From: an uncultured Pseudomonadota bacterium
GTDB taxonomy: Bacteria > Myxococcota_A > Polyangia > Fen-1088
DNA: 64,000 nucleotides
Reading direction: 5' to 3'
NCBI GenBank assembly: GCA_963725905.1
Contig: CAVSAG010000002.1
Coordinates: 1,140,514-1,204,513 of the forward strand
The notes below the pieces were generated by a model. It had not been told where the DNA came from. It was given only the letters and a program-made list of their open reading frames with translations, and did no database searches. The position numbers and the translations under genes were made by a program. Position 1 is the first letter of the stretch. Every line of letters starts with the position of its first letter. Positions 28,793-64,000 of this stretch are shown piece by piece.

Positions 28793-28937
28793 GCGACCTC
28801 GAATTGATTGTGTCACGCGCGCCGCGCGATGAAAGACGTAAGCGCGCCCGCAGCGCATTTTTGGCGGATTTCTCGGCACACCGACGGAGATCTGTCCCGA
28901 TCAGCGTCGAGGTCGCTCAAGTAGGGAAGGGTGATCG

Positions 28938-39484: not shown

Positions 39485-39493
39485 GAACCCCTT

Positions 39494-41773: not shown

Positions 41774-41861
41774 GCGCGGCAGGTTAGCCAATTCGCCCCC
41801 GCCGGGGAAGCGCGCCCCTTCGGTGATTGCGGGGCGCTGTCCGGTGTTATGGTCCGCGCCC

Positions 41862-44222: not shown

Positions 44223-44252
44223 CCGCCCCTGGCTTCTCGCTGACGCTGGTCT

Positions 44253-47587: not shown

Positions 47588-47706
47588 CAATAGAGCCTCC
47601 AGACGAAGTAAGGGGCGCACTCCACGGATCTGTTGCCGCAGGGCGCCCGAACCGATCAATATTTCGCGCGTTTTGGCCGTTTGTCGCGCCGCGGTAGCAA
47701 GGCGCC

Positions 47707-47742
47707 AATGTCGGCAATGTCGGCAGTATCGGTATGTGTGGT
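47707..47742 (+). repeat. Degenerating 9-bp tandem repeat (AATGTCGGC AATGTCGGC AGTATCGGT ATGTGTGGT)
   Basis: Read directly from the sequence. It lies in the divergent promoter region and runs into the first possible start codon (47734) of the phosphoesterase gene. Confidence 0.6.
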
Positions 47743-48852
47743 CCGGAGCTTGCTGGAGCCGACGGCGTGCGCGGCCGACGATGGCAGGCAACCGCCGGAA
47801 CTTGCGGGATTGCGGTGCGCCCGCGCACCGGCGCCCGTCTCATTCCTGGTCGCTCGTGTCGCGAGCGTTCGGTTTCTTGTCGGACGCTCACCGTCGCGGC
47901 CGCGCTGGCGTCGGTCGCGCTTGCGGTCGGGTGCGGGCTCCCCCCGTCGGTGCAGGCCGCCAATCACTCGCAGAGCGCGCCCAGCTTTACCGTCGTGACC
48001 CTACCCGATACCCAGTACTACACGGCGGCTCATCCGGACATCCTCGACGCGCAGGTCGAGTGGGTGACGCGCGAGCGTGCCTCGCGGCAGATCGCGCTGC
48101 TCCTGCACGAGGGCGACATCGTCGATCGCGACGAACCGATTCAGTGGACGCGCGCCGCAAGCTCCCTGCGTCTGCTCGACGGTGTCGTCCCCTACGTCCT
48201 CGCCTCGGGCAACCACGACTACGCGCTCCGGGGGCACGTCATCACCCGCGACACGCTGCTCGATCGCTACTTCCCGCCCCGGCCGTCGGGGCTCTACGAG
48301 CCGGGGCGGAACGAGAACCGCTTCGAGATCGTCCAGGCGCCGGGCGGTCCGTGGCTGATCCTCTCGCTCGAGTTCGGCCCGCGCGACGGCGTCCTTGCCT
48401 GGGCCGACGGGATTGCCAGGCGCTACGCCGCGCTGCCGGCCATCGTCGTCACCCACGCCTACCTCACCTCGGATGACGAGCGCTTCGATCACCTCGACCA
48501 CCCCGATCAGCTCTGGAACCCGCACCGCTACCTCGACGACCGCGCCGCGGGCAGCGTCAACGACGGCCAGGAGATCTGGGACAAGCTGATCTCGCGCGAC
48601 GACAACATCCTGTTCGTCCTCTGCGGCCACGACCTGGGCGACGGGGTCGGGCGGCTCACCAGCGTGCGCGCCGACGGGACGATCGTTCATCAGATCCTGG
48701 CGAACTACCAGATGCAGGCGCAGGGGGGCGGGGGTTACCTGCGCCTGCTGCAGTTCTCGCCGGTGCAGCGCAGCGTGCGCGTGCGGACCTACTCGCCGTA
48801 CTTCGACGCCTTCAAGACCGATCCGGACAACGACTTCACCCTGGCGTACTGA
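47734..48852 (+). CDS. Calcineurin-like metallophosphoesterase lipoprotein
   Basis: Lipobox LAVGC. Motifs ..VTLPDTQYY.., ..HEGDIVD.., ..ASGNHD.., ..VVTHAY.., ..CGHDLG... The start is uncertain (ATG 47734 or GTG 47815). Confidence 0.8.
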   Translation: MCGPELAGADGVRGRRWQATAGTCGIAVRPRTGARLIPGRSCRERSVSCRTLTVAAALASVALAVGCGLPPSVQAANHSQSAPSFTVVTLPDTQYYTAAHPDILDAQVEWVTRERASRQIALLLHEGDIVDRDEPIQWTRAASSLRLLDGVVPYVLASGNHDYALRGHVITRDTLLDRYFPPRPSGLYEPGRNENRFEIVQAPGGPWLILSLEFGPRDGVLAWADGIARRYAALPAIVVTHAYLTSDDERFDHLDHPDQLWNPHRYLDDRAAGSVNDGQEIWDKLISRDDNILFVLCGHDLGDGVGRLTSVRADGTIVHQILANYQMQAQGGGGYLRLLQFSPVQRSVRVRTYSPYFDAFKTDPDNDFTLAY

Positions 48853-49335: not shown

Positions 49336-50061
49336 ATGCCGAACCTTAAGTTTCGCTCGGGTCGTTTCTTCGTCGTTGGTGTCCTCGGTACCGTGGCGGC
49401 CTGGGCCGTCGCCTGCCAGGGACCGCAAGAATTCTTCCGGGACACCGGGAACATCAACACGGGCGCGGGTGGCAACACGTCGTCGACCGGCGGTCAGGGC
49501 CAGGGCGGGTCGACGGCCACCGGCGGCGGCAGCGGCGGCACGATCGTCACCGGCGCCGGCGGCACCTCCTCCGGCGGGACGACGGGCACCGGCGGCTCGG
49601 GCACCGGCGGCGCCGCCACGGGCGGCGTGACGGGCGCTGCGGGTCGCGTGGGGAGCGGCGGCGCGACGGGTGCCGCGGGCACGACGTCGACCGGTGGCGC
49701 AACGGGCGCTGCAGGCCACATCGGCACGGGCGGCGCGACGGGGGCAGCCGGCACGACGGGCGCTGCCGGCACGACAGGCGCGGCCGGACGCATCGGCACG
49801 GGCGGCGTGACGGGCGCAGCCGGGACGACAGGCGCTGCCGGGACTACCGGCGCGGCCGGGACTACCGGCGCGGCCGGCGGCACGGGCGGTGGCGGCACGA
49901 CGGGCACGAACTGCGCCGACACGATCGTGATCAACGGCTACTCCGCGGGTGCTGCGTCAACCTTGCAGCACGTGCACGGAGAACAGGCTACGACAAGTCG
50001 GCGATCTGCGAGAGGGTCATCGACTGCTACGACAAGAACTTACCCTGCGGATCGGCCATGA
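49336..50061 (+). CDS. Lipoprotein with Gly-X-Y periodic region; the 3' part appears frame-disrupted (see findings)
   Basis: Lipobox AWAVAC. After ..[15 protein letters not shown].. the called frame becomes R/S/T junk, while a Cys-rich domain-like sequence continues in another frame to about 50.18-50.22 kb. Confidence 0.55.
49624..49911 (+). repeat. 32 consecutive Gly-X-Y triplets (one interruption) with nested GAAGTT units
   Basis: Translation from G97: [96 protein letters not shown]. Confidence 0.8.
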
Positions 50062-51097: not shown

Positions 51098-52270
51098 CTA
51101 GACGCGCGGCGCGGGGCGGGCGGCGAGGACGCGGCGGTAGATCGCCAGGTAGCGGTCGACCGCCGGCTCGATCCGGTAGCGGCTCTCGGCGAGCCGGCGC
51201 GCGGCGCGCGAGAGCCGGCGGTGCAGATCGGCGTCGCCGAGGATTCGGGCGGCGGCGGCGGCCATCGCTTCGATGTCGCCGAGCGGGCAGAGCGCGCCGA
51301 CCTCGCCGTCGGGGATCACCTCGGGGAGACCGCCGACGGCGGAGGCGACCACCGGCACGCCGCAGGCCATCGCCTCCAGCGCCGCCAGGCCGAAGCTCTC
51401 GGTCTCGCTGGGGAGAAGAAAGAGATCGGCCTCTTGCAGGACCGCGGGGAGGTCGACCCGCTCGCCGAGGAACTCGACGTCGGTGCCGAGGGCGAGGGCG
51501 GCGGCGCGCGCCTCGACCGCCGCGCGGTCGGGACCGTCGCCGATGAGACGGAGTCGGGCAGGGCGGAGGACACGGAGGCGGGCGAACACCTCGACGACGT
51601 CGGCGACGCGCTTGACGGGGCGGAAGTTCGAGACGTGAACGACGATCGGCGTGCCGGGGAGCGGCCGCTCGCCGGGGACCGGGCGGAAGCGATCGGCGTC
51701 GACGAAGTTGGGGACGATCTCGATGTCGACCGTGTCGGGCACGCCCAACGTCTCGTGCGTCGCGCGCGCCAGCCAGGCGGACGGAGTGGTCACCGCGTCG
51801 CTGGAGGCGATCGAGAAGCGGGTGAGCGGCAGGAAGCTCGGATCGCTGCCGACCAGCGTGATGTCGGTGCCGTGCAGGGTCGTCACCAGCCGCGGGGCCG
51901 CCGCCCGGCCGCCGGCGTCGGAGGCCAGGACCTCGCGCGCCAGGTGTGCGCTCACGGCGTGCGGCAGCGCGTAGTGCGCGTGGACGACGTCGAGCTGCTC
52001 GCGGCGTGAGACCTCGACGATCTTCGAGGTGAGCGCCAGTGTGTACTGCGAGTGTTTGAGCTGGGGGTAGGCGGGTGGCGCGACCTTGTGGAAGGCGATG
52101 TTCGGCTGCGTCGGATCGAGGCGCCCGGGGACGTCGTCGCTGAAGAGATGCACGCTGTGCCCGCGGCGCGCCAGCGAGGTGGCGACCTCCGCGGCCACGA
52201 CGCCGCTGCCGCCGAAGGTCGAGAAGCAAACGACGCCGATTCGAAGCCTCGGTGCCGGGGTCTTGCTCAT
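51098..52270 (-). CDS. bshA: N-acetyl-alpha-D-glucosaminyl L-malate synthase (bacillithiol glycosyltransferase)
   Basis: Colinear with Bacillus BshA: ..RIGVVCFSTFGGSGVVA.., ..HAHYALPHAV.., ..TTLHGTDITLVG.DPS.., ..VHVSNFRPVKRV.., ..SETESFGLAALEAMACGVP... The ATG overlaps the bshC stop (ATGA). Confidence 0.9.
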   Translation of the reverse strand: MSKTPAPRLRIGVVCFSTFGGSGVVAAEVATSLARRGHSVHLFSDDVPGRLDPTQPNIAFHKVAPPAYPQLKHSQYTLALTSKIVEVSRREQLDVVHAHYALPHAVSAHLAREVLASDAGGRAAAPRLVTTLHGTDITLVGSDPSFLPLTRFSIASSDAVTTPSAWLARATHETLGVPDTVDIEIVPNFVDADRFRPVPGERPLPGTPIVVHVSNFRPVKRVADVVEVFARLRVLRPARLRLIGDGPDRAAVEARAAALALGTDVEFLGERVDLPAVLQEADLFLLPSETESFGLAALEAMACGVPVVASAVGGLPEVIPDGEVGALCPLGDIEAMAAAAARILGDADLHRRLSRAARRLAESRYRIEPAVDRYLAIYRRVLAARPAPRV

Positions 52271-53922
52271 GGCTCGAGGTCCTGCAGCTTGGTCGGGAAG
52301 GGGTCGCGTTCCAGGCGATCGAAGACCAGGGCCTTGAGTGTGGCCGGCCCGACGCGCCCCGCGAGCGACGGCCAGGCGTAGGCGCGTTCTTGCGGAGAGC
52401 CATCGGGCGCCAGCGCCAGCCGCACGCGCGCGAGGCGGGCGATCGCGGCGCCGTCGCTTTCGGCCAGCTTGCGCCCGTAACGCGCGGTGAGGCGCTGGAG
52501 CGCGCGGGCGACGTGCGCCCGCGTGCGGTCGGCGGCGCGCGCGAGGTTTCGGTCGCGCGGATCGAGCGCGGCGACGGTGGTGGCAATCTGGTCGATGACC
52601 GGCGCGATCTCCCGCGCGATCCGGTCTTTCAGATTCGCCGGGGACGGCGCCCGCGGGGGGAGCGCCGTCGGTCGGCCGGCCACGAGATCTTCGATCGGCG
52701 CCTCGAAGTCGTCGGCCGTGCGGCCGAGCTCGGCCAGACGCCGGCGCGTGTGGGGATCGAGGCAGCGAAACCGCGCGCGCGGAACCACCAGCGGTATCGT
52801 GAGGCCGAAATGGTCGTAGAGCGGGGCGAGCTGCCCGAAGTAGCTGACCTCCGCCGGTCCGCCGACATACGCGGCCGTGGGGAGGATCGTGTCTTGGACG
52901 ATCGGGCGCAGCAGGGCCGAGGTGGAGAAGCGGAGCGGATCGCGCGCCAGCGCGTCCGCGATCTCCGGCGCCGTCCAGCGTGCGTCGCAGCCGGCGAGGC
53001 GCCAGCGGGCCGCGGGCGCCGCCGGGTCGGCGGGGCGTTCCAGCCGGTAGCGGGGTCCCGTCGCGCCGTCGCGGTGGCCGAAGACGAGGGCGCAGCCGGC
53101 ACGGGTCGGGATCTGCTGCTCGAACCCCGCCGCGGTCAACGCCTCGCCCCGCTCCACGAGCCCGCGCTCGATCGCCTCGGCGCCGGCCAGCGCCTTTCGG
53201 TAGACCGGCGCCGCGAGGGCCGCGACCGCCGGGACGCGCGGGTCGAGGACGAGCAGCCCCTCGTCGGCGAACAGCGTCGCGAGGACCCCGGCGAACGCCT
53301 TGGCGATGCCCGCCCCGGCGCGGTAGTGGGCGCGCAGCAGGGCCAGCGTCTCCTCGGCCGCCGGGCCGGCGCCCAGCAGCTCGGCGAGCGCGTCGAGCCG
53401 GGCGTCGATCTCCGGCCCCAGGCGGCGGTGGGCGATCGAGGCGCGCGTCTCCGCCGGCGGCTCGGCGGGCAGCGACAGCTTGACCGGCTTGCCGCCAGGG
53501 CCGGCGATCGTGGCCGAGGCGATCTCGGCGAAGTCGTGGTCCTCCGTCTGCAGCCAGAAGAGCGGCACGCAGCGCACGCCGGCCTCGGCCGCCAGCGCGC
53601 GCGCCACCGCGATCGCCGACGCCGCCTTGTAGAAACCGTAGAGCGGTCCGAGAAAGAGCCCGACCTGCTGGCCGGTGACGACGACCGCGGTGCCGCCTCC
53701 GGCCAGCGCCTCGAGGTTCGCGGCGCGCGCCAGGCTGGGCGCGAGGGCGGCCTGCTGGGCCCCGAGCTCGGTGAGCAGGGCCGGGGCAGGGCGGCGCTCG
53801 GCTGCCGCGCGGGTGCGGGCGATCCGGTCTGCCCCCGATCGAAAGTCGAGCGGGATGAACGTGCGCGAGATCGCCTCGCCGGCGAGATACGAGCTTTCGA
53901 ATGCGCGAGGCACCGGGGGCAT
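52267..53922 (-). CDS. bshC: Bacillithiol biosynthesis cysteine-adding enzyme
   Basis: ..VVVTGQQVGLFLGPLYGFYKAASAI..VPLFWLQTEDHDFAEI.. matches the BshC signature (GGQQ.GL..GPLY...K; FW...EDHD..E). ~550 aa. Confidence 0.9.
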   Translation of the reverse strand: MPPVPRAFESSYLAGEAISRTFIPLDFRSGADRIARTRAAAERRPAPALLTELGAQQAALAPSLARAANLEALAGGGTAVVVTGQQVGLFLGPLYGFYKAASAIAVARALAAEAGVRCVPLFWLQTEDHDFAEIASATIAGPGGKPVKLSLPAEPPAETRASIAHRRLGPEIDARLDALAELLGAGPAAEETLALLRAHYRAGAGIAKAFAGVLATLFADEGLLVLDPRVPAVAALAAPVYRKALAGAEAIERGLVERGEALTAAGFEQQIPTRAGCALVFGHRDGATGPRYRLERPADPAAPAARWRLAGCDARWTAPEIADALARDPLRFSTSALLRPIVQDTILPTAAYVGGPAEVSYFGQLAPLYDHFGLTIPLVVPRARFRCLDPHTRRRLAELGRTADDFEAPIEDLVAGRPTALPPRAPSPANLKDRIAREIAPVIDQIATTVAALDPRDRNLARAADRTRAHVARALQRLTARYGRKLAESDGAAIARLARVRLALAPDGSPQERAYAWPSLAGRVGPATLKALVFDRLERDPFPTKLQDLEP

Positions 53923-53969
53923 CAACTATACTCGCCCGCACCGTCGGCGCCCGTCGCCGCGATCGATCC

Positions 53970-56561
53970 ATGCGTCACCGCACTTTCGCCCGTATCCTTT
54001 CGGCTCTCTTCGCGTCCTGCATCTTCATGGCCTCCCGTCTTGCCCCCGCGGCCGGTCCGCCGGCGCAACCGAACGCCGCGCAGATCGCGCTCGGTCTGCG
54101 CAAGCTGGGCGTCGCCGGAAGTGTCCTCTATGTGGCGGCGCACCCCGACGACGAGAACACCGCGCTGCTCGCCTACCTGGCCAACGGCGCGCAGGTGCGC
54201 ACCGCGTACCTGTCTCTCACGCGCGGCGACGGCGGGCAGAACCTGGTCGGCTCGGAGCAGGGGCCGGCCCTGGGGCTCATTCGCACGCAGGAGCTCCTGG
54301 CCGCGCGCCGCATCGACGGCGCCGAGCAGTTCTTCACTCGCGCCCGAGACTTCGGGTTCTCGAAGAGCCCCGAAGAGACGCTGCGCATCTGGGGGAAGGA
54401 CGAGGTCCTGGCGGACGTCGTCGCGGTGATCCGCAAGTTTCGCCCCGACGTGATCGTGACCCGCTTCTCGCCCGGGCCCGCCGAGACCCACGGCCACCAC
54501 ACGGCCTCGGCGATGCTGGCGCTGGCGGCGTTCCGCGCGGCGGCGGATCCAAATTTTCACCCCGAGCAGCTCACCGGCGGCGTCACCGCCTGGCAGGCGC
54601 GCCGCATCTTCTGGAACCGGTCGTCGTTCTTTCTCAAGCCGACCGACGACCTCAGCGGCGACGTCAAGCTGGACGTCAACGACTACAACCCGCTGCTGGG
54701 CGAGTCGTACGGCGAGATGGCCGCCGACAGCCGCAGCATGCACAAGAGTCAGGGGTTCGGCGTGGCCCGCAACCGCGCGTCGATCGTCGAGTACTTCCAC
54801 CTGCTCGACGCGGCGGACGCGAAAGAGAAGGCTGCCAAGAAGCCACTTGCCGGGATCTTCACGGGGATCAATATCGGCCTCGGGCGCTTCCCGGGGACCA
54901 GCAAGCTGAGAGCGCTCGTCGCGAGGGCCGTCGCCAAGCTGGACGTCGCGGCGCCCTACAAGGTGGTCCCCACGTTGGCGCAGATCGACGCTGCCGTGGC
55001 CGAGATTCCCGACGCCGGGTGGCGTGCCGAGAAGCAGCGGGAGGCGGGTGAGCTCCTGGCCTCCTGTGCGGGGCTGTTCGTCGACGCGACGGCGGCAGGC
55101 TCGCTCGTCGCGCCCGGAGCCTGGATCGACGTGACCGCGACGGCCATCAATCGCTCCCCGATCGCGGTGACGATGAGCGCCCCGAGGTTCCCGTTCCCGC
55201 TGGCGCCCGGCGCCGATGCGGCCAGCGTCAGCGTCGGGGCGACACTCGACGCGCGCGGCGAAGCGGCCCACGCGCAGAGAGAGCTCGCGAGGACGGTCAC
55301 GCTGGCGTTGCCGAAGGATGTGCCGGCCACGACGCCGTACTGGCTGGAGGTGCCGCCCGAGGCGGGCCTTTACCACGCCGATCCGGCGCTGATCGGCCTG
55401 CCCGAGCGGCCGTCTCCGCTCGAGGTCACCTTCACCTTCACGATCGCCGGCCGCAAGGTCACCCTCGCGCGGGCCATCAGCTACAAGTGGACCGATCCGG
55501 TGATGGGCGAGCGCCGCTGCCCGCTGGAGGTGACGCCTGTCGTCTCGGTCTCGCCGTCGACGAACGTGCTCATGTTCGCGGGAGCCGCGCCGCAAATATT
55601 CGAGGTCCGGCTGGTGGCCGGGAAGGCCAAGTCGTCGGGCGTGCTGCGCCCCGAGCTGCCTGCCGGTTGGACCGTGGAGCCGTTGCGCGCGCCGTTCAGC
55701 CTCAACGCCGCCGGCGACGAGAAGACGCTCAGCTTCCGCGTCTTCCCGTCAGCGGGCACCGGGCGCCCGGCTGCGGGCAAGCTGCGCCTCTGGGCCGACG
55801 TCGACGGCGAGCATCTCGCGCGCGGGGTGGTGCGGATCGAGCACTCGCACATCCCGATCCAGACGTACCTCGTCGACGCCGATGTGCGGCTGGAGCCGAT
55901 CGAGCTGGCGCTGGGCGGTACGAAGATTGGATACATCCCCGGACCGGGCGACGAGGTGCCGGCTGCCCTGCGGCGGGTCGGCTACCAGGTCACGTTGCTC
56001 GGCGAAGAGGCGCTGGCCGGCGATTCAGCGGCGTTGCTTCGGTTCGACGCCATCGTCGTGGGCGTGCGTGCCTTCAATACCAGCGACCGGCTGCGTGCCG
56101 CGCACGTGATGCTCATGGAGTACGTGAGGGCGGGCGGCACGCTGGTCGTCCAGTACAACACCAACAACCGACTGGCGCCGCTCATCGCAGAGATCGGCCC
56201 CTGGCCGTTCGAGATCGGGCAGAAGCGCGTCACCGACGAGACCGCGCCCGTCACGTTCGCGCTCGCCGGTCATCCAGCGCTCACCACCCCGAACCGCGTC
56301 GGCCCGCACGACTTCGAGGGATGGATCCAGGAGCGCGGCCTCTACTTCGCCGAGAAGGTCGACGCGCGCTACGAGGCGCCGCTGTCGATGAACGATCCGA
56401 AGGAGCCGGCGCAGGCGGGGAGCCTGCTCTGGGCGCACTACGGCAAGGGGACCTTCGTCTACACCGGGCTGGCGTTCTTCCGGCAGCTCCCCGCCGGCGT
56501 GCCGGGCGCGTACCGCCTGTTCGCCAACCTCCTCGCCGGCGGCCACCCGCGGGCCAAGTGA
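53970..56561 (+). CDS. Large secreted PIG-L/LmbE-family deacetylase with C-terminal ThuA/GATase1-like domain
   Basis: Hydrophobic N-terminus ILSALFASCIFMA. PIG-L motifs: ..VLYVAAHPDDEN.., ..SLTRGDGGQN.., ..HGHHTAS... C-terminus: ..DAIVVGVRAFNTS..GGTLVVQYNT... Confidence 0.85.
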   Translation: MRHRTFARILSALFASCIFMASRLAPAAGPPAQPNAAQIALGLRKLGVAGSVLYVAAHPDDENTALLAYLANGAQVRTAYLSLTRGDGGQNLVGSEQGPALGLIRTQELLAARRIDGAEQFFTRARDFGFSKSPEETLRIWGKDEVLADVVAVIRKFRPDVIVTRFSPGPAETHGHHTASAMLALAAFRAAADPNFHPEQLTGGVTAWQARRIFWNRSSFFLKPTDDLSGDVKLDVNDYNPLLGESYGEMAADSRSMHKSQGFGVARNRASIVEYFHLLDAADAKEKAAKKPLAGIFTGINIGLGRFPGTSKLRALVARAVAKLDVAAPYKVVPTLAQIDAAVAEIPDAGWRAEKQREAGELLASCAGLFVDATAAGSLVAPGAWIDVTATAINRSPIAVTMSAPRFPFPLAPGADAASVSVGATLDARGEAAHAQRELARTVTLALPKDVPATTPYWLEVPPEAGLYHADPALIGLPERPSPLEVTFTFTIAGRKVTLARAISYKWTDPVMGERRCPLEVTPVVSVSPSTNVLMFAGAAPQIFEVRLVAGKAKSSGVLRPELPAGWTVEPLRAPFSLNAAGDEKTLSFRVFPSAGTGRPAAGKLRLWADVDGEHLARGVVRIEHSHIPIQTYLVDADVRLEPIELALGGTKIGYIPGPGDEVPAALRRVGYQVTLLGEEALAGDSAALLRFDAIVVGVRAFNTSDRLRAAHVMLMEYVRAGGTLVVQYNTNNRLAPLIAEIGPWPFEIGQKRVTDETAPVTFALAGHPALTTPNRVGPHDFEGWIQERGLYFAEKVDARYEAPLSMNDPKEPAQAGSLLWAHYGKGTFVYTGLAFFRQLPAGVPGAYRLFANLLAGGHPRAK

Positions 56562-56577
56562 CACGGCCAAGCGGGCA

Positions 56578-56730
56578 ATGACGGCGGGCGACGAGCACGA
56601 CGGAGGTGACCGCGCCGAGCTCGGCGACGCGCCGCCCTTCTTGAGCTGGCGGGCCATCTACCTCATCGTCCTCGGCGCGCTGGCGATCGAGATCGTGCTG
56701 GGCGTGGTGCTGACGGCGGTCGCGCGTTGA
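56578..56730 (+). CDS. Possible 50-aa single-TM protein preceding the symporter (small-subunit-like)
   Basis: It translates to MTAGDEHDGGDRAELGDAPPFLSWRAIYLIVLGALAIEIVLGVVLTAVAR. Its stop overlaps the TTG start of the symporter (TTGA at 56727-56730). It is below the ORF-track size cutoff. Confidence 0.45.
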   Translation: MTAGDEHDGGDRAELGDAPPFLSWRAIYLIVLGALAIEIVLGVVLTAVAR

Positions 56731-58439
56731 GCACGCTCGACTGGGGCGTCCTCGGCGGGACGCTGGCCGCGATCGTCGCCTATGGTCTCTGGAAGACGCG
56801 CGGCCCGTCGAACATGGCCGACTTCGTGCACGGCGGTTACCGGGACCGCTGGCTGACGATCGGCCTCGGGGTGATGGCCACGCAGGCCTCGGCGATCACC
56901 TTCCTCTCGATGCCGGGGCAGGCCTACGAGGACGGCATGCGCTTCGTGCAGTTCTACTTCGGGCTGCCGGTGGCGATGGTGATCCTCTCCGTCGCCTTCA
57001 TCCCGCGCTTTTACCGGTCGCGCGTGCTGACCGCCTACGAGCTGCTCGAAACCCGCTTCGATCTGAAGACCCGGCAACTGGCGGCACTCTTGTTTCTCCT
57101 GCAACGGGGCCTGTCGGCCGGGATCACCATCTACGCGCCGGCCATCGTGCTGTCGAAGGTGCTCGGCTGGCCCCTCAACGCGACCTGTCTCATGATCGGC
57201 GGGCTGGTGATCGTCTACACCGTCGCCGGCGGGACGCGCGCGGTCAGCCAGACGCAGAAGCACCAGATGGTGGTGATGCTGCTGGGGATGGTGGTGGCGT
57301 TCGTGGTCATCGTCCATCGCCTGCCACCCGACCTTTCGCTGCGCCACGCGATCGCCGTCGCCGGCACGCTGGGGAAGATGAACGTGGTCGATCTCTCGCC
57401 CAACCTCGGGAGCCGTTACACGCTCTGGTCGGGGCTGACGGGCGGCTGCTTCCTGGCGATGGCCTACTTCGGGACCGATCAGTCACAGGTGCAGCGCTAT
57501 CTGTCGGGTCGGTCGGTGACCGAGAGCCGGATGGGTCTGCTGTTCAACGCGCTGCTCAAGGTCCCGATGCAGTTCCTCATCCTGCTGGTCGGCGTGATGG
57601 TCCTCGTCTTCTATCAGTTCAACCCGCCGCCGCTGTTCTTCAACGAGGCGGAGCTGGCGCGCGTAGCAAAGACACCGCATGCGGCCGAGCTGCGCACGCT
57701 GGAGGTGGAGCACCGCATCGCCTTCGTCAAGAAACGCGTGGCGGCCAACGGCCTCGCGGCGGCGCTCGACGGCGGGGACGCCGCGGTCATCGAGGCGTCG
57801 CGGGCGCGGCTGCGCGCGGCGGCCGCCGGTTCGGAAGCCATCCGGGAGAAGACCCGGGCGCTGCTGACGGTGGCGCTGCCGCGCGCCGAGACGCACGACG
57901 CCGACTACGTCTTCCTGTCGTTCGTGATGGCCAACCTGCCGCGCGGGGTGATCGGTCTTCTGCTGGCGGTCATCCTCTGCGCGGCGATGTCGTCGACGGC
58001 CAGCGAGCTGACCGCGCTGGGCGGCTGCACGCTGGTCGATTTCTACCGCCGCAGCTTTCGCCCGGAGGCGACCGATGCGCACTACCTGCGGGTCGCCAAG
58101 ATCGCCACCGGCGCCTGGGGACTGGTGGCGGTCGCCTTCGCCGGCTTCGCCTCGTTGATCGACAACCTGATCCAGGCGGTCAACATTCTCGGCTCGCTCT
58201 TCTACGGGACGATCCTGGGGATCTTCCTGGCGGCGTTCTTCACGCGCCGCCTGCGGGCGACGCCGGTGTTCCTCGCCGCGATCGCCTCGGAAGTGCTGGT
58301 GATCGGGATCTGGAAAGGCACGAAGATCGGATTCCTCTGGTTCAACGTGATCGGCTGCCTCGCGGTGCTCGCGCTCTCCTTCGCGCTCAACACCACCCGC
58401 CTCGGGCGAGCTCAAGCATCCCTGGAGATCGGTCGATGA
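56727..58439 (+). CDS. Sodium:solute symporter (SSS/SLC5) family transporter
   Basis: About 13-14 TM helices. ..GVMATQASAITFLSMPGQAY.. and ..TVAGGTRAV.. are typical SSS blocks. 570 aa. Confidence 0.9.
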   Translation: MSTLDWGVLGGTLAAIVAYGLWKTRGPSNMADFVHGGYRDRWLTIGLGVMATQASAITFLSMPGQAYEDGMRFVQFYFGLPVAMVILSVAFIPRFYRSRVLTAYELLETRFDLKTRQLAALLFLLQRGLSAGITIYAPAIVLSKVLGWPLNATCLMIGGLVIVYTVAGGTRAVSQTQKHQMVVMLLGMVVAFVVIVHRLPPDLSLRHAIAVAGTLGKMNVVDLSPNLGSRYTLWSGLTGGCFLAMAYFGTDQSQVQRYLSGRSVTESRMGLLFNALLKVPMQFLILLVGVMVLVFYQFNPPPLFFNEAELARVAKTPHAAELRTLEVEHRIAFVKKRVAANGLAAALDGGDAAVIEASRARLRAAAAGSEAIREKTRALLTVALPRAETHDADYVFLSFVMANLPRGVIGLLLAVILCAAMSSTASELTALGGCTLVDFYRRSFRPEATDAHYLRVAKIATGAWGLVAVAFAGFASLIDNLIQAVNILGSLFYGTILGIFLAAFFTRRLRATPVFLAAIASEVLVIGIWKGTKIGFLWFNVIGCLAVLALSFALNTTRLGRAQASLEIGR

Positions 58440-58449
58440 GGGCAGAGCC

Positions 58450-59820
58450 ATGCGCCGGCGGTCGGCCTTTGTCGGTCTGGGGTGGTTGTTGGTGCTGGGG
58501 GGCTGCGGCGGGGGATCGCCGGGGCATGGCGGCTCGACGGGCGGCAACGGTGGCGCCTCGCTCGCCGGCCGCGGCGGCGCCTCGCCCGGTGGAACCGGCG
58601 GGAGTACCGCCGGGACGGGCGGCGCCGGCGGGTCGGCATCGAAGCGTCCCTGGCCCGACTCGACGGCCAGGACGCTGATCCTCGCCGATCAACTCCCCGA
58701 CGGATTGACCGCGGCGCAACAGCAGTTCGTCGTCGGTCACATGGTCGGCACGCAGAAGCTGACGGTGGCCCAATCGCAACCGCTGCGGGTGCTAGCGCCG
58801 AGCTTCCTGGTGCTGCACTACCACCTGGCGATCTGGCAGTCGGCGCCGTCGGTCAGCTTCATCGTCGACGGGACGAGCTGGGGGAACGACTACCCGACGG
58901 TCACGATGAACGAGAGCTGGTTCTGGCACAACCAGGCGGCGGAGCGCGTGGCAGCCGTCGACGACGGCAAGCTGCTGATGAACATCGGTGACAGCGGCTT
59001 CGCGGCGTACTGGAGGTCGTCGATCCTGGCGCAGATCGCGGCGGGGGACTACGACGGGCTATTCGCCGACTCGGCGGGGCCGGATCTCCTGCAGTGGGAG
59101 GCGCAGAGCCCGGCCGAGCCGCGCCTCACGGGGACCGGCGCGCGCGACACCGCGATCGCCGAGCTCGGCGGCCAGACGTACATCGAGGCGTGGCAGGCGT
59201 TCATGACCGACTTCAACGCGGCGCTGGCCGCCGCCGGGCTTGCGCTGATCCCCAACACCGGGTCGTTCACCACCAGCTGGGACACCACCGACTACAGCCT
59301 GACCGCAGGCGTCTTCGTCGAGGGGTTCGCCGACCCGACGTTCGCGCCGGCCGACTGGCAGCGCTCGATGAACCAGATCCTGGCGCTGGCCGGCCAGCAC
59401 AAGATCGTCATCGCGCAGAACTACCTCGACGCTTCGAGCAACGTCGCCGTGCGGCTCTACTACCTCGCCAACTATCTCCTCATGCGGGGCGATCGCAGCT
59501 ACCTCGACTATTTCGCGGGCGGGCCGCTCGAGTGGTACCCGGAGTGGGACGTGGACCTCGGCGCGCCGGTCAAGACGGGCGCCACCGTCGCCGATCTGGC
59601 GATGGGCGGCGCGTACGAGCGTGAGTTCGCCAATGGCTGGGCGGCGGTCAACCCGACCGCGAGCGCGGTAACGCTGACCTTCCCGTCGACCGCGCGGCTG
59701 GTCATGCCGCAAGGAGGCGGCGCGATCGGCGCCAGCGGCGCCGAGCCGGGCTCGCTCGCCTACGAATCGGCGGCGTCGCTGACGCTGCAGCCGGCGACGG
59801 CGGCGATCGTCCTCAAGTAG
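58450..59820 (+). CDS. Lipoprotein with putative glycoside-hydrolase-like TIM-barrel domain (GHL-type), function unknown
   Basis: Lipobox LVLGGC and a Gly-rich linker. ..FLVLHYHLAIW.., ..DGLFADSAG.., ..FVEGFADP.., ..IVIAQNY.. resemble hypothetical GH-like families. It starts 10 nt after the symporter stop. Confidence 0.55.
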   Translation: MRRRSAFVGLGWLLVLGGCGGGSPGHGGSTGGNGGASLAGRGGASPGGTGGSTAGTGGAGGSASKRPWPDSTARTLILADQLPDGLTAAQQQFVVGHMVGTQKLTVAQSQPLRVLAPSFLVLHYHLAIWQSAPSVSFIVDGTSWGNDYPTVTMNESWFWHNQAAERVAAVDDGKLLMNIGDSGFAAYWRSSILAQIAAGDYDGLFADSAGPDLLQWEAQSPAEPRLTGTGARDTAIAELGGQTYIEAWQAFMTDFNAALAAAGLALIPNTGSFTTSWDTTDYSLTAGVFVEGFADPTFAPADWQRSMNQILALAGQHKIVIAQNYLDASSNVAVRLYYLANYLLMRGDRSYLDYFAGGPLEWYPEWDVDLGAPVKTGATVADLAMGGAYEREFANGWAAVNPTASAVTLTFPSTARLVMPQGGGAIGASGAEPGSLAYESAASLTLQPATAAIVLK

Positions 59821-59825
59821 CGGCG

Positions 59826-60905
59826 CTACTCGAGGACCAGCTCGTCCGGGACGTCGGTGTCGCTGGCGCCGACCGCCTCGTCGTGGACGGTCGCCGGGAC
59901 CGACGTCGTGGGCTCGCAGGGGAGAATCACGTCGTTGTCGCCGGCGTGCAAGGTGATCGTCTGGGTCGCCGTCGCGCAGTCCGAGGTGTAGGCGACCAGG
60001 TTGAACGGCGGGCCGGTCGGCAGCGCCTCGAGCTCGCAGGACTCGCCGTCGGTGAAGCAGCTGTAGCTGCTGGAGCGGTCGCCGTTGGCGAAGACCAGCG
60101 TCGCCGAGACGTCGGCGTGATCCGCGCCCGCGAACGAGATCCGCAGGCGCGCGGTTTCCGCGAGCGGATGGGCGCGACAGGGTGGATCGAGACAGACGGG
60201 CTCGGGATCGCCGGCGGGCGGGATCGAGACCGGCAGCTCCACCGGGGTTGTGCGTCCCGTCGCGAGGACCAACATCTGGGTGGGCCCGTCGGGTAAGTCG
60301 ACAGCGAAGCGGCAGTTGTCGTCTACCTCGGCCGTCGCTAGGTCGTGGCCCACCACCTCCGTATCGGTCGGGCGCAGCGAGACCCGATCGTAGGGACAGG
60401 CCTCGCCGAGCGGGAATCCGATCGCGCCGCGCAGGACCGGCAGGGGATCGAGGGTGGCCTCGACGCCGTCGGCGGGTGCCGTCACCGAGCGCAATGTCGT
60501 CGGGCGCAGGTTCGGGCCGTCGAACGTCAGATCGTAGCTCCGCCCGAACACGAGCCCCGGGATCTCGAACGCGCCATCCTGGACGCGGATCCGGCGCCCG
60601 CGTTCGCGCTTTCCCGTCAGCGATGCGCGAACGCCGATGGCGGCACCTTCCGGACCCCGCGCCCGCCCGCGAATGGTCGCGGGCCCGCTCGTCTTGTCCA
60701 GGAGCTCGCGCAGCGTGGGCCCGGACCAGGCCCGGCGCGCGGGCGGTGACGGCGCGCTCGGACCGGCCGGCGGCCGCGTCGGGGCCTCGGACTCGGCCTC
60801 CTCCGGCTCGGGAGGCGGTGCCAGGCGGCGATGGTGTCGGGTGCCCTTCACCGCGAAGAGGAGCAGCGCCACCACCACGATGCCGAGAGCGACGAACAAC
60901 CGCAT
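59826..60905 (-). CDS. N-terminally anchored Pro-rich/Cys-containing protein, function unknown
   Basis: TM MRLFVALGIVVVALLLFAV and a Pro-rich linker. ..IRGRARGPEGAAIGVRASL.. is reminiscent of carboxypeptidase-regulatory-like beta-sandwiches. Coding-like composition. Confidence 0.5.
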   Translation of the reverse strand: MRLFVALGIVVVALLLFAVKGTRHHRRLAPPPEPEEAESEAPTRPPAGPSAPSPPARRAWSGPTLRELLDKTSGPATIRGRARGPEGAAIGVRASLTGKRERGRRIRVQDGAFEIPGLVFGRSYDLTFDGPNLRPTTLRSVTAPADGVEATLDPLPVLRGAIGFPLGEACPYDRVSLRPTDTEVVGHDLATAEVDDNCRFAVDLPDGPTQMLVLATGRTTPVELPVSIPPAGDPEPVCLDPPCRAHPLAETARLRISFAGADHADVSATLVFANGDRSSSYSCFTDGESCELEALPTGPPFNLVAYTSDCATATQTITLHAGDNDVILPCEPTTSVPATVHDEAVGASDTDVPDELVLE

Positions 60906-60956
60906 CCTGATCCAGGGACACCGGATCTGGCCGCGGGTTCCACCGCTCCGAGTTGC

Positions 60957-61766
60957 CTAACGCGCTGTCCAGCCGCCGTCGATCATCAGCGTCGTGCCGG
61001 TGATCATCGAGGCGGCGGGTGAGCAGAGAAAGACGACGGCGGCGGCGACGTCGGGCGGTTCGCCGACGCGGCCGAGCGGGATGCGGGCCAGCAGATCGCG
61101 GCGAAAGTCTTCGTCCTGCAGCCATTTGACCGTGCCGGGCGTGCGGATGAAGGTCGGCGCGACGGCGTTGACGTTGATGCCGTGCGCCGCCCACTCGATG
61201 GCCAGGCACTTGGTCAGGTGGGCGATGGCCGCCTTGGTCATGCAGTAGACCGACTCGGTTGGCAGCGCGACGAAGCCGGCCTGAGAGCTCAGGTTGACGA
61301 TGCGCCCGCCGTGGCCGCCGGCGATCATCGCGCGCCCGACGGCCTGGCTGACGAAGAACGTTCCCTTGAGGTTGACCGCCAGCGTGGCGTCGAAGTCGGT
61401 CTCGGTCACCGCGATGGCCGGGTTGGGCGGGCCGATGCCAGCGTTGTTCACCAGGATGTCCAGGCGGCCGAAGTGGTGGACTGCTTCCGCCACGGCCGGA
61501 GCGATCTCGGCGGGGCGCGCGACGTTCATCTGCAGCGGCAGCGCCCGGCGGCCGAGCGCGCGGATCGCCTCGGCGACGTCGCCACCCGTGCCCGCGTCGC
61601 GGAAGCCCAGCGCCACGTCGGCGCCGGCGCGCGCCAGGGCCAGCGCGCAGGCCCGGCCGATCCCGCGCGCGGCCCCCGTCACGAGCGCGATCCGCCCGGC
61701 CACGTCGAAGGCGGGCGTGGCGTCGGAGGGGGCGGGAGAGATCGTCGAAGTCGGGGTCTCGTTCAT
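60957..61766 (-). CDS. Short-chain dehydrogenase/reductase (FabG-like)
   Basis: ATG at 61766. TGAARGIG cofactor motif, NNAG, catalytic S..YxxxK (SVYCMTKAA), and ..PGTVKW... Confidence 0.9.
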   Translation of the reverse strand: MNETPTSTISPAPSDATPAFDVAGRIALVTGAARGIGRACALALARAGADVALGFRDAGTGGDVAEAIRALGRRALPLQMNVARPAEIAPAVAEAVHHFGRLDILVNNAGIGPPNPAIAVTETDFDATLAVNLKGTFFVSQAVGRAMIAGGHGGRIVNLSSQAGFVALPTESVYCMTKAAIAHLTKCLAIEWAAHGINVNAVAPTFIRTPGTVKWLQDEDFRRDLLARIPLGRVGEPPDVAAAVVFLCSPAASMITGTTLMIDGGWTAR

Positions 61767-61863
61767 ACGGCCACGGTAGCGCGTAACCGGCGTTCGCGGG
61801 CGGCGTAGGACCCGGTGAAACTCACCGGGCCAGGTGGCCCTCGACCCAAACCAGGAGAGAGAC

Positions 61864-62109
61864 ATGAGCATCAAAGGAGCAATGATCGCCGCCTCGGTGG
61901 CCGGGCTGTTCGCGATGGGCGCCTCGGGCGTCGCCTCCGCGAAGAAGGGCGACGACGTGATGTGCAGCGGCGTCAACGCCTGCAAGGGGCAGAGCGCCTG
62001 CAAGGGCGGCGACAACGCCTGCAAGGGAAAGAACGGCTGCAAGGGGCAGGGGAACATGAAGATGAGCAAGGCCGACTGCGAGGCCAAGGGCGGAAAGGCC
62101 GTCAAGTAG
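61864..62109 (+). CDS. Candidate RiPP precursor: 81-aa signal-peptide protein with 6-Cys CKG-repeat core (bufferin-like, 6-Cys type)
   Basis: AGGAGA lies 6 nt upstream of the ATG. MSIKGAMIAASVAGLFAMGASGVASA / KKGDDVMCSGVNACKGQSACKGGDNACKGKNGCKGQGNMKMSKADCEAKGGKAVK. It is immediately upstream of the DUF692 and DUF2063 genes. Confidence 0.7.
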   Translation: MSIKGAMIAASVAGLFAMGASGVASAKKGDDVMCSGVNACKGQSACKGGDNACKGKNGCKGQGNMKMSKADCEAKGGKAVK

Positions 62110-62168
62110 CGCGGGCCGAGACCGGCGGCGCCTGGGCGCGTCGCCGGTCGTGCCACCCGGGGGATCGG

Positions 62169-63011
62169 ATGACCACGTTGTTCCCAAATCTCGGGCGCGG
62201 GCTGGGGTTGCGGCGCGAGCACTACCAACAGGTCGTCGAGGCACGCCCGGCGGTCGACTGGTTCGAGGTGATCACGGAGAACTTCATGGTCGCCGGCGGG
62301 AATCCGCGGCGGGTGCTGGAGGCCGTGCGCGAGGACTACCCGATCGTGCTGCACGGCGTGTCGCTCTCGATCGGCTCGACGGACCCACTCGACGAGGCGT
62401 ATCTGGACGGGGTCGACGCGCTGGCGCGCGCCGTCGAGCCGGCCTGGATCTCCGACCACCTGTCATGGGGAACCGCCCACGGGGTGAACGCGCACGATCT
62501 GTTGCCGCTGCCGTACACCGAGGAGGCTCTCGCGCACGTCGCGCGCCGGGTGGCGCGCGTGCAGGAGCGACTCGGGCGCCGCATCCTGCTGGAGAACCCG
62601 TCCAGCTATCTCCAGCTCGACGGCGACATGACCGAGTGCGAGTTTCTGGCGGAGCTCGCGCGGCGCGCCGACTGCGGCATCCTGCTGGACGTCAACAACG
62701 TCTTCGTCAGCGCGCACAATCACGGCTGGGACGCGGGGGCTTACCTGGCGGCGCTCCCCGCCGCGCGCGTCGGTCAGATTCACCTGGCCGGTCACTCCGC
62801 GGACGGCGAGCTCTTGATCGACACGCACGACGGTTACGTCTGCGACGGTGTCTGGCGGCTCTACGGCGAGGCGATCGCGCGCTTCGGGGCGGTTGCGACG
62901 ATGATCGAGTGGGACGCCGACGTGCCGGCGTTCGAGGAGCTGGAACGGGAGCTGGGGCGGGCGGCGGCCTGCGCGCGGGCGGCGCTCGGGGAGGCGCGCG
63001 ATGCGGCCTAG
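62169..63011 (+). CDS. DUF692 / MNIO-family (MbnB/BufB-like multinuclear non-haem iron oxidase) enzyme
   Basis: ..GLGLRREHY..VDWFEVITENFM..YPIVLHGVSLSIGSTDPLD..WISDHLSWG..HDLLPLPYTEEA..ILLENPSSY.. is the canonical DUF692 block order. Confidence 0.9.
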   Translation: MTTLFPNLGRGLGLRREHYQQVVEARPAVDWFEVITENFMVAGGNPRRVLEAVREDYPIVLHGVSLSIGSTDPLDEAYLDGVDALARAVEPAWISDHLSWGTAHGVNAHDLLPLPYTEEALAHVARRVARVQERLGRRILLENPSSYLQLDGDMTECEFLAELARRADCGILLDVNNVFVSAHNHGWDAGAYLAALPAARVGQIHLAGHSADGELLIDTHDGYVCDGVWRLYGEAIARFGAVATMIEWDADVPAFEELERELGRAAACARAALGEARDAA

Positions 63012-63813
63012 CGGGCCACAGCTGGCGTCGATCCAGGCGGCGTTGCTGGCGCGGATCACGGGGCAGAGCCTCGGAGTGCCGGCCCATGACCTGGCGGCGC
63101 TGGTCCGGGGCGACGCGCGCGGCGGCGCCGAGCGCCGACTGGAGCTGTACGCGTCGATGTATCGCGCGCGCCTCGTCGAGGCGCTGGAGTCGCAGTTTCC
63201 CCGGCTGGCGCGGCGTCTCGGCAGCGAGGCGTTCGCCGCTCTCTGCGGTGATTACGCGGGCGACGTGCCGTCGCGCCACCCGTCGCTGCGCGAGCTCGGG
63301 CGCGCGCTTCCGGCGTGGCTGGCGGCAAAGCGGCCCGAGCGGCCGGAGCGCCCGGTCTTGGCCGCGCTCGCCGCGCTCGAGTGGGCGCGCCTCGATCTCC
63401 ACGACCAGGCCGACGAACCGGTGATGACCCTGGAGGCGCTGGCGGCGGTTTCGCCGGAAGACTTCGCCGCGCTGCCGCTGCGGCTGATCGCGGCGCATCG
63501 TTTCGTCGAGGTCGACGGTGGGACCGAGGCGCTGTGGGACACGCTCGGCCCGGAGACCGAGGAGCCCCCGCGAGACCCTGACGCCTTGGCCGGCACCGCG
63601 GCGACGCTGCTGATCTGGCGCCAGGGGATCGCCGTCTATCACCGCGCCCTGGAGTCGTCCGAGCGCGCCGCGCTCGAACGCGCGGCCCGGGGCGTCCCCT
63701 TCGGCCTCGTCTGCGACAGCCTTTCGGCGGCCGGCGACGCAGAGACAGCCGCGGCGCGGGCGTTCGCCTGGCTGTCGACCTGGCTCGCCGACGGCCTCCT
63801 CGCCGTCACCTGA
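63001..63813 (+). CDS. DUF2063-family partner protein (MbnC/BufC-like)
   Basis: It overlaps the DUF692 gene by 11 nt. ..RLELYASMYRARLVEALESQFPRLARRLGSEAFAALCGDYAGDVPSRHPSLRELGRALPAWL.. matches the DUF2063 N-terminal pattern. Confidence 0.8.
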   Translation: MRPSGPQLASIQAALLARITGQSLGVPAHDLAALVRGDARGGAERRLELYASMYRARLVEALESQFPRLARRLGSEAFAALCGDYAGDVPSRHPSLRELGRALPAWLAAKRPERPERPVLAALAALEWARLDLHDQADEPVMTLEALAAVSPEDFAALPLRLIAAHRFVEVDGGTEALWDTLGPETEEPPRDPDALAGTAATLLIWRQGIAVYHRALESSERAALERAARGVPFGLVCDSLSAAGDAETAAARAFAWLSTWLADGLLAVT

Positions 63814-63923
63814 GCGCTCCGGGCGCCGTGCTCTGGCCGCCGGATGCCGTACAATCGGTCATCACGGCGTTCGTCGGCCACATCCGCTTTGGGGGGCAGA
63901 GCCGTCGCCGCGCGGTCGCGCGG

Positions 63924-64000
63924 ATGCTCGCGGCGCTCGCCGGCGTCTGCCTGCTGGCGCTGGCGGGGCCGGCGCGCGCGGCTGACGATCCCTTCACGCC
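63924..64000 (+). CDS. Start of a secreted protein (truncated by the window end)
   Basis: ATG at 63924, then MLAALAGVCLLALAGPARA/ADDPFT.. (signal-peptide-like). Only 25 codons are visible. Confidence 0.3.
   Translation, partial: MLAALAGVCLLALAGPARAADDPFT

Follow-up and report, generated by a model that had tools for sequence, protein, structure and literature searches.

We analysed a stretch of 64,000 nucleotides (here called the window) from contig CAVSAG010000002.1 of assembly GCA_963725905.1, which derives from an uncultured soil bacterium of the Polyangia (Myxococcota), and found near its 3' end three consecutive genes that very probably constitute a bufA2-bufB2-bufC2 operon, that is a Buf2-type bufferin cluster of the kind also described as 'Cys-Lys' captophorin. 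Bufferins serve bacteria as a defence against copper that has been recognised recently and is very widespread, and form the largest group of peptides made on ribosomes and modified after translation (RiPPs) that MNIO enzymes produce. The first gene encodes a small secreted precursor with six cysteines (BufA2), the second an MNIO (DUF692) maturase (BufB) and the third a DUF2063 partner (BufC). The three proteins are members of the respective families, the catalytic residues of the maturase are intact, and the order of the genes as well as a promoter motif in front of bufA2 are conserved in related loci. An original prediction made from the sequence of the window had read the locus as a periplasmic, Cys-derived RiPP of the bufferin kind made by an MNIO and a DUF2063 protein, and family hidden Markov models (HMMs) and synteny point to the same predicted product. 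It had further spoken of an uncharacterised type, a description that had to be dropped since the locus passes the equivalog cut-offs for BufA2 and BufB, and Buf2 has already been published. The cluster is laid out as follows, in coordinates of the window.

61864..62109, plus strand: bufA2 precursor gene, ATG to stop, 81 aa, with the ribosome-binding site AGGAGA 7 nt 5' of it
61864..61941, plus strand: signal-peptide part of bufA2, residues 1-26, predicted by sequence rules
61942..62106, plus strand: core part of bufA2, residues 27-81 (55 aa), with Cys34, Cys40, Cys46, Cys53, Cys59 and Cys72
62169..63011, plus strand: bufB, MNIO (DUF692) gene, 280 aa, beginning 59 nt past the bufA2 stop
63001..63813, plus strand: bufC, DUF2063 gene, 270 aa, overlapping bufB by 11 nt
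61782..61808, plus strand: putative SigF-type extracytoplasmic function (ECF) promoter CGTAACC-N15-CGTAG, with -35 GTAACC and -10 CGTA, 56 nt 5' of the bufA2 ATG

The 81-aa secreted six-Cys precursor with its C-K-G repeat is thus present as originally described, and the DUF692 gene followed by an overlapping DUF2063 gene is confirmed by Pfam PF05114 and PF09836. The gene order stood as well; the spacing of 60 nt given between the precursor and DUF692 genes is corrected by one nucleotide.

The precursor belongs to the BufA2 family

The precursor reads MSIKGAMIAASVAGLFAMGASGVASA (signal peptide) followed by KKGDDVMCSGVNACKGQSACKGGDNACKGKNGCKGQGNMKMSKADCEAKGGKAVK (core). By inspection the N-terminus has the features of a Sec-type signal, with Lys4 in the n-region, a hydrophobic h-region over residues 5-20 and A24-S25-A26 at positions -3 to -1 directly before K27. 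In an alignment of 121 sequences A24 is kept in 104, A26 in 115 and K27 in 118, and by these sequence rules an N-terminal Sec signal with a signal peptidase I site is predicted. The core is rich in Lys and Gly, and its four central Cys all stand in C-K-G contexts (NACKG, SACKG, NACKG and NGCKG). With 74.5 bits the protein passes the cut-off (60) of the NCBIfam equivalog model NF050166 Cu_RiPP_BufA2 ('BufA2 family periplasmic bufferin-type metallophore'); the match takes in its residues 6-79 and positions 2-78 of the model's 79. No Pfam family, PF10048 included, matched the precursor at E <= 0.1.

At E <= 1e-3 we collected 1097 homologues, mostly unnamed metagenomic proteins of 81-90 aa, a few of which carry a precomputed PF10048 match. 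Each of the six Cys is kept in 119-121 of the 121 aligned sequences, exactly six Cys are present in 117 of 120 homologues, and in a second alignment of the precursor (A2) all six are invariant. Other positions that are invariant or nearly so in the 121 sequences are G36, N38, K41, G42, G55, N57, K60, G61, G63 and the A-x-A signal-peptidase site with the Lys that follows it. The residue after the second and third central Cys varies (H, K or A at position 47; A or K at position 54, with K54 in 25 of the 121), and because of this variation the fourfold C-K-G pattern of the window reads as a minority variant and not as a new motif. The C-K-G core had been put forward as unusual, yet it is a published hallmark of the Buf2, BUF_6/12Cys or 'Cys-Lys' group.

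An AlphaFold2 model of the precursor, built from 66 sequences and moderately confident (pLDDT 61), has Cys34 in the first beta-strand (residues 31-35), Cys72 in the only helix (69-74) and the Cys-bearing loop (36-63) in coil, in agreement with the published fold of BufA1 and BufA2, a two-stranded sheet with a short helix and a disulfide between strand 1 and the helix (PMC11626156). A sequence search of the PDB with BufA2 returned no solved structure. We calculated monoisotopic masses of 5479.526 Da for the unmodified core and 5461.385 Da (-18 Da) for the predicted mature product. As a separate observation, residues 10-57 bear a weak likeness (GDxVxCxGxNxCxxCxxC) to the structural-zinc Cys loop of medium-chain alcohol dehydrogenases and carbonyl reductases (PDB 3wnq and 4c4o, E 0.006; TIGR02818, E 0.037), which may be convergence or chance.

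The maturase and its DUF2063 partner

BufB scores 378.5 bits with the NCBIfam model NF050167 MNIO_BufB ('MNIO family bufferin maturase'), whose cut-off is 310, and 364 bits (E 4e-109) with Pfam PF05114 (MbnB_TglH_ChrH, MNIO family). The rival MNIO models all stay under their cut-offs (HvfB 266.5 of 360 bits, ApyH 105.9 of 400, MbnB 71.9 of 325 and ChrH 34.5 of 600). Matches to MbnB structures in the PDB range from E 1e-9 to 1e-12. Ten residues are invariant in 80 BufB orthologues, namely H62, H97, E142, D174, N177, H205, D218, H220, E247 and D249. In an alignment with MbnB chain 7tcr the first eight of these pair with H54, H90, E133, D163, N166, H192, D208 and H210 (the MbnB numbering was verified by counting for H54 only), which we take to be the iron ligands of MbnB. 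E247 is presumably the equivalent of its ninth ligand, E239. The multi-iron site of BufB is thus predicted to be intact. Asp249 is the counterpart of FonB-Asp249, the proposed catalytic base (PMC13097082).

MNIOs of the Cys-Lys group carry an Asp right after the catalytic Asp, at the position of FonB-Phe250, which has been modelled as touching the substrate Lys, and FonB-F250 variants are still active (PMC13097082). This Asp is absent from the BufB of the window, which reads E247-W-D249-A250-D251 (62907-62921). Most orthologues read E-R/W-D-D, and an Ala or a Glu takes position 250 in the window and in the related loci (here given L numbers) L003-L008 and L010, unlike the Asp typical of Cys-Lys captophorin MNIOs; in the window and L003-L006 the Asp has moved to 251. 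In Caulobacter BufB2 the residue directly after the catalytic Asp is Asp251 in that protein's own numbering. The Asp after the catalytic Asp is a proposed specificity determinant and not a family-defining residue, and a natural clade that does without it bears on the specificity rule for Cys-Lys MNIOs.

BufC matches Pfam PF09836 (DUF2063) at 67.6 bits over residues 12-107, so that both the DUF692 and the DUF2063 profile searches gave significant hits. Its sole NCBIfam match is HvfC (45.8 bits against a cut-off of 142, E 6e-12). There seems to be no BufC-specific NCBIfam model, because 42 BufC orthologues likewise match only HvfC (best E 5e-19) and none scores much higher; one of them also touches an unrelated radical-SAM model. 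A single-sequence search of the PDB with BufC gave weak matches only. A profile of the 42 orthologues found PDB 3DEE (NGO1945) at E 1.5e-4, with segments 22-102 and 183-254 aligned. This structure is the exemplar of the DUF2063 'PME1' partner (PMC13097082), and BufC is accordingly predicted to be of the PME1 type, with an MNIO-binding N-domain and a C-domain resembling a RiPP recognition element. At the 11-nt overlap of bufB and bufC a GGAGG-like site lies upstream, which suggests translational coupling of the two genes, and such coupling fits a joint action of both proteins.

Gene order in related loci

To place the cluster we used 80 loci related by BufB, in which the proteins of the window were searched by tblastn. 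A BufA2 homologue stands directly 5' of BufB and BufC directly 3' in about 67 of the 80, so that the small open reading frame (ORF) is indeed conserved beside the DUF692 and DUF2063 genes of relatives. The loci with this A-B-C order come from Polyangia, Myxococcia, Gammaproteobacteria and other groups, among them Kofleriaceae, Myxococcaceae, Methylococcaceae, Coxiellaceae and Binatia. Together, more than 1000 precursor homologues, six near-invariant Cys and the recurrent A-B-C order put the locus far beyond chance. The nearest BufB loci are metagenome-assembled genomes of Polyangia, with 95% identity to L009 (MFD06714.bin.2.117) over the best aligned segment and 83-86% to L003-L006. A myxobacterial host had been proposed and this was correct; its being unusual did not hold up, given 74 published MNIO-PME1 clusters in Myxococcota, of which 41 in Polyangia (PMC13097082 Table S3).

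No DoxX gene was found in the window when four Pfam-confirmed or DoxX-like proteins of relatives were used as tblastn queries. The absence noted earlier is thereby confirmed; it is not unusual, since the Caulobacter buf2 cluster likewise has no bufD1-like gene. A DoxX gene lies within 6 kb in 8 of the 80 loci (Pfam-confirmed for L007 and L021), in L007 directly 3' of bufC. Further members of the cluster had been thought possible past position 64000, and DoxX was one of the partners to look for there. There the contig L001 continues with a giant protein of the DUF3857/transglutaminase-like kind instead, and DoxX was not seen. In published MNIO-PME1 clusters DoxX is present in 67.8% and NrsF in 14.1% (PMC13097082).

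A promoter motif conserved upstream of bufA2

The motif CGTAACC-N15-CGTAG matches once in the window, in front of bufA2; with 0.34 matches expected by chance this count alone is not significant. The exact motif is found once, at the same spot upstream of bufA2, in L001, L003-L009, L011, L013, L014 and L018, a set in which BufB identity drops to about 63%, and the 15-nt spacer and the flanks are just 55-65% conserved. In Caulobacter a SigF site, GTAACC-N16-CGAA, was mapped by 5' rapid amplification of cDNA ends upstream of CC2907 (bufA2) and CC3254 (bufA1) (PMC3511200). The conservation of a SigF-type promoter before Polyangia bufA2 genes is new here, and its function is suggested by this likeness. 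Locus L008 encodes on its minus strand (7873-9360), right after bufC, an ECF sigma factor (Sigma70_r2/r4_2) and an NrsF-family anti-sigma factor (PF06532, 47.4 bits), and GTAACC-N16-CGTAT stands upstream of its own sigF-like gene. Sigma/anti-sigma genes have been said to accompany Buf1 and not Buf2 clusters (PMC12452194), and L008 is a counter-example to that statement. The bufA2 gene of the window is probably driven by a SigF/NrsF-type ECF system encoded outside the window, as in Caulobacter.

A DoxX gene of L012 (3596..4078) also has the motif before it (3534-3560). Another copy in that locus (4074-4100) lies near the end of the DoxX gene, and between this copy and bufA2 (5670) there is a minus-strand ORF of 522 aa, an arrangement that looks like an insertion between promoter and operon.

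A predicted pathway and its comparison with known systems

Bufferins were defined with the Caulobacter operon buf1ABCD, whose DUF2282 precursor has four Cys (Leprevost et al. 2024, PMC11626156). The same work described buf2ABC, with a Sec-signal precursor of six Cys and no bufD1-like gene, and BufA2 became the founding member of the BUF_6/12Cys cluster, which ranks second in size among the groups of MNIO-associated precursors. By mass spectrometry Caulobacter Buf2 is 18 Da lighter than its unmodified form: the central Cys lose 4.03 Da each, CysI and CysVI are unmodified and probably disulfide-bonded, and the product absorbs near 305 nm (PMC11626156). Copper, but not Fe, Zn or Mn, induces both operons, and each aids growth under copper stress; in vitro BufB1 and BufC1 are both needed and together suffice, and DoxX is dispensable for the modification and function of Buf1 (PMC11626156). 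A survey of the MNIO landscape listed thousands of Buf2 precursors of 51-367 aa, 90% of them with six Cys (PMC12452194). MNIO-PME1 products have been named 'captophorins' and their precursors divided into a DUF2282 group, a Lys-Cys group and a Cys-Lys group; the 5-thiooxazole was found to be general to MNIO-PME1 clusters, and the 5-mer NACKG was tested (PMC13097082).

Homology with the Caulobacter system lets us propose the chemistry, the choice of modified Cys, the bound metal (copper) and the regulator. The 81-aa precursor would be made in the cytoplasm, where BufC would dock its core on BufB, and BufB would convert Cys40, 46, 53 and 59, each in its C-K-G, to 5-thiooxazoles by a four-electron oxidation apiece. 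After Sec export and a signal peptidase cut behind Ala26, a periplasmic disulfide between Cys34 and Cys72 would close a small beta-strand/helix fold round the heterocycle-bearing loop. The 55-aa product with four 5-thiooxazoles and one disulfide would stay in the periplasm and sequester excess copper, chelating Cu(I)/Cu(II) through the thiooxazoles. Expression would be switched on by a SigF/NrsF-type ECF sigma factor acting at the GTAACC-N15-CGTAG promoter.

The closest characterised system is Caulobacter vibrioides buf2ABC (CCNA_02999-03001; CC2905-CC2907), which shares the precursor-MNIO-DUF2063 order without DoxX, the Sec-signal BUF_6/12Cys precursor with six Cys, and a SigF-type promoter with an identical -35 GTAACC and a regulator outside the cluster. 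It differs in belonging to the Alphaproteobacteria, in a core of 61 residues (55 in the window), in a -10 of CGAA with a 16-nt spacer (CGTA and 15 nt in the window) and in the distance between CysI and CysVI, which by the paper's numbering are residues 24 and 50 and thus 26 apart, compared with 38 in the window. It has been characterised experimentally, whereas the locus of the window is known from sequence alone. The Buf1/gig operons (bufA1B1C1D1) are alike in maturation by an MNIO and a DUF2063 protein, Sec export, 5-thiooxazoles, periplasmic copper buffering and, in Caulobacter, SigF control. Their precursors, unlike that of the window, match PF10048 and have four Cys, two of them modified, and the operons usually include DoxX and often adjoin sigF-nrsF. 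The Cys-Lys captophorins (PMC13097082) share the multiple Cys-Lys motifs and the MNIO-PME1 architecture, and NACKG occurs twice in the precursor of the window. Oxazolin (HvfABC), fontiphorin and gonophorin also combine an MNIO with a DUF2063 partner, a signal-peptide precursor, 5-thiooxazoles and a copper link, but their precursors have EGKCG repeats with the Lys before the Cys and are largely helical or unstructured. Methanobactin (MbnABC) is alike in the MNIO fold with its conserved metal-site residues and in turning Cys of a ribosomal peptide into a copper ligand; it is unlike in its MbnC partner, the lack of a Sec signal and an oxazolone-thioamide product that is secreted to acquire copper.

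Several points weigh against reading the locus as a copper-buffering Buf2 operon. The proposed modification, export and metal binding lean on one characterised Buf2, that of Caulobacter, together with Buf1. The modified and the disulfide-bonded Cys are assigned by their order in the sequence only, and the spacing of CysI and CysVI is unlike that of Caulobacter; the supporting fold model is only moderately confident. Ala250 in place of the proposed Lys-reading Asp would be a further weak point. BufC reaches no curated family cut-off and matched no BufC-specific NCBIfam model. Among about 30 window proteins Pfam identified no copper-resistance gene and no NrsF, and a tblastn search of the window with an RpoE sequence as query found no ECF sigma factor. 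Because copper-homeostasis genes, a sigma factor and NrsF are missing from the window, the copper role and the regulator are unsupported by the local context; the one indirect pointer to copper-responsive expression and copper binding is the SigF-type promoter motif kept in front of bufA2.

Alternative readings

The same Buf2-type thiooxazole chemistry could serve a role other than copper buffering, binding another thiophilic metal (Cd, Au, Hg or Zn) or defending against oxidants and hypochlorite under a SigF-type regulon, which we consider unlikely. In Caulobacter the SigF regulon is switched on by chromate, dichromate and cadmium (PMC3511200), available accounts of other bacteria place hypochlorite responses under SigF/NrsF homologues, and MerC-Buf2 fusions hint at other metals for some bufferins (PMC12452194); the want of a copper gene in the window and the altered position 250 in this clade would fit as well. 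On the other hand, both characterised bufferins are induced by Cu (and not by Fe, Zn or Mn) and protect against it (PMC11626156), the MNIO-PME1 products oxazolin, fontiphorin, bulbicupramide and gonophorin are grouped as Cu-associated (PMC13097082), and the core closely resembles the family consensus.

It is also quite improbable that the Polyangia subclade is a functionally diverged Buf2, which with its four C-K-G, its Ala250/Asp251, no DoxX and a downstream DUF3857/transglutaminase protein would differ from Caulobacter in recognition, in metal or oxidant specificity or in partnership, or, more modestly, that the SigF/NrsF module and the GTAACC promoter travel with Buf2 across phyla.

Far less credible is an unmodified Cys-rich thiolate metal binder, or a cryptic or inactive cluster in which the DUF692 and DUF2063 genes are adjacent by accident. 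Sizeable fractions of bufferin precursor genes do lack an adjoining MNIO gene (PMC12452194), and the likeness of the core to the structural-zinc loop of alcohol dehydrogenases (E 0.006) could be quoted in favour of a plain thiolate site. Against this the A-B-C order is kept across wide phylogenetic distance, the three ORFs are intact, the catalytic residues are invariant, bufB shares 11 nt with bufC and the promoter motif recurs in relatives.

It is most improbable that the product is a secreted chalkophore akin to methanobactin, one that carries oxazolone/thioamide groups and serves to acquire copper. BufB and MbnB do share the MNIO superfamily (PF05114 and the MbnB matches in the PDB), yet the MbnB model falls far below its cut-off, a DUF2063/PME1 protein takes the place of MbnC as partner, the precursor, with its Sec signal and foldable 55-aa core, is no short leader-plus-core peptide, and no exporter or TonB-dependent receptor gene adjoins the buf cluster. 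Moreover, MNIO-PME1 products absorb at about 305 nm, which has been assigned to 5-thiooxazoles and not to oxazolone-thioamides (PMC13097082). An oxazolin/HvfABC-type or a Buf1 (DUF2282)-type cluster, for which HvfB as second-best enzyme model, HvfC as sole partner match and the few homologues with a precomputed PF10048 hit might speak, has an equally negligible chance, being refuted at the curated HMM thresholds (HvfB and HvfC cut-offs missed, that of BufB passed) and by a precursor that has no EGKCG repeat, carries its Lys after and not before the Cys, lacks PF10048 and has six conserved Cys where Buf1 has four.

The Buf2-type bufferin operon remains our preferred reading, and the locus is a further example of this known system and not a new kind: it is caught by the curated HMMs and by surveys that cover Polyangia, and every point flagged as unusual in the original prediction is already part of the described family (PMC11626156, PMC12452194, PMC13097082). 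It adds one Buf2 example from an uncultured soil Polyangia bacterium and confirms that this locus is already classified by automated HMMs. The minor additions, i.e. the SigF-type promoter motif conserved before Polyangia bufA2 genes (in L012 also before DoxX), a Buf2 linked to sigF-nrsF in L008 and a clade without the proposed Lys-reading Asp, leave the picture of how the system works unchanged.

Further features and neighbouring genes

60957..61766, minus strand: divergent short-chain dehydrogenase (SDR) gene, by Pfam
start at 63828 (GTG) or 63924 (ATG), plus strand: signal-peptide ORF 3' of bufC, running out of the window end
62120..62149, plus strand: 12-bp GC-rich stem-loop in the bufA2-bufB spacer, directly past the bufA2 stop, by folding

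A hairpin at this position in the bufA2-bufB spacer also folds strongly in nine relatives (L003-L009, L011 and L013), and in more distant relatives its sequence is unlike that of the window. Possibly it acts as a partial terminator, or stabilises the mRNA, and would thereby raise the ratio of precursor to enzyme. As a limit on this reading, its energy relative to shuffled sequence gives z -0.78, which is not significant in GC-rich DNA, and no U-tract was seen at 62120..62149. Conservation of position is the sole support for the element. Scans of 61500-64000 for sigma-70 promoters and intrinsic terminators and of 60500-64000 with Rfam gave no matches, and none of the buf genes recurs elsewhere in the window.

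The SDR gene is separated from bufA2 by a spacer of 97 nt. It had been thought notable, but it is kept only in the five closest relatives (L003-L006 and L009), is absent from L007 and L008, and amounts to local synteny. The large gene 3' of bufC encodes a secreted protein with DUF3857, a transglutaminase-like core and TPR. It begins 15-110 nt past bufC on the same strand, occupies 63828-64000 of the window and is continued in L001 (10828-16144) and in L009 from 7672. In L009, a locus that breaks off within the gene, the product has 1410 aa or more; in L001 the gene is cut by a frameshift into two ORFs, whose pieces total about 1770 aa. The gene is present in L003, L006 and L009, partial in L005 and absent from L004, L007 and L008. 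Since the SDR and the large gene are kept only among the nearest relatives they are neighbours by descent, and both were ruled out as members of the cluster. The 5' end of the large gene in the window is out of frame with L009, so its start codon is uncertain.

L001 is an ENA contig that encodes an identical BufC protein; over the 11 kb that match window positions 52994-64000 it is just 94% identical, and the alignment has 203 gap positions. Several genes of this contig are broken up, for example a symporter of 570 aa called as 170 aa, which looks like indel errors of a long-read assembly.

The rest of the window holds glycoside hydrolases, BshC, a PIG-L-domain protein, a solute symporter and housekeeping genes. 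At 52267-56561 a gene of the BshC family (bacillithiol synthase-like, minus strand) adjoins one for an 886-aa protein with a PIG-L domain (GlcNAc deacetylase, BshB-like), and this pair, at a distance of 5-10 kb from the bufferin operon, may form part of a pathway for low-molecular-weight thiols. Pro-rich repetitive ORFs (PPEPVAPP-like) at 14220-14522, 45253-45636 and 49494-49934 lie opposite or overlap other candidate genes, and may be genes or frame artefacts of GC-rich DNA. A PilZ-domain protein (27818-28879) and an FHA-GGDEF diguanylate cyclase (30618-31511), encoded within a few kb of each other, belong to cyclic di-GMP signalling unrelated to the bufferin. A run of secreted glycoside hydrolases (GH) at 4972-6540 and 38051-47791 (GH28, a GH30 C-domain, GH44, GH3 with an Fn3-like domain, and GH43) fits a polysaccharide-degrading lifestyle of this Polyangia bacterium.

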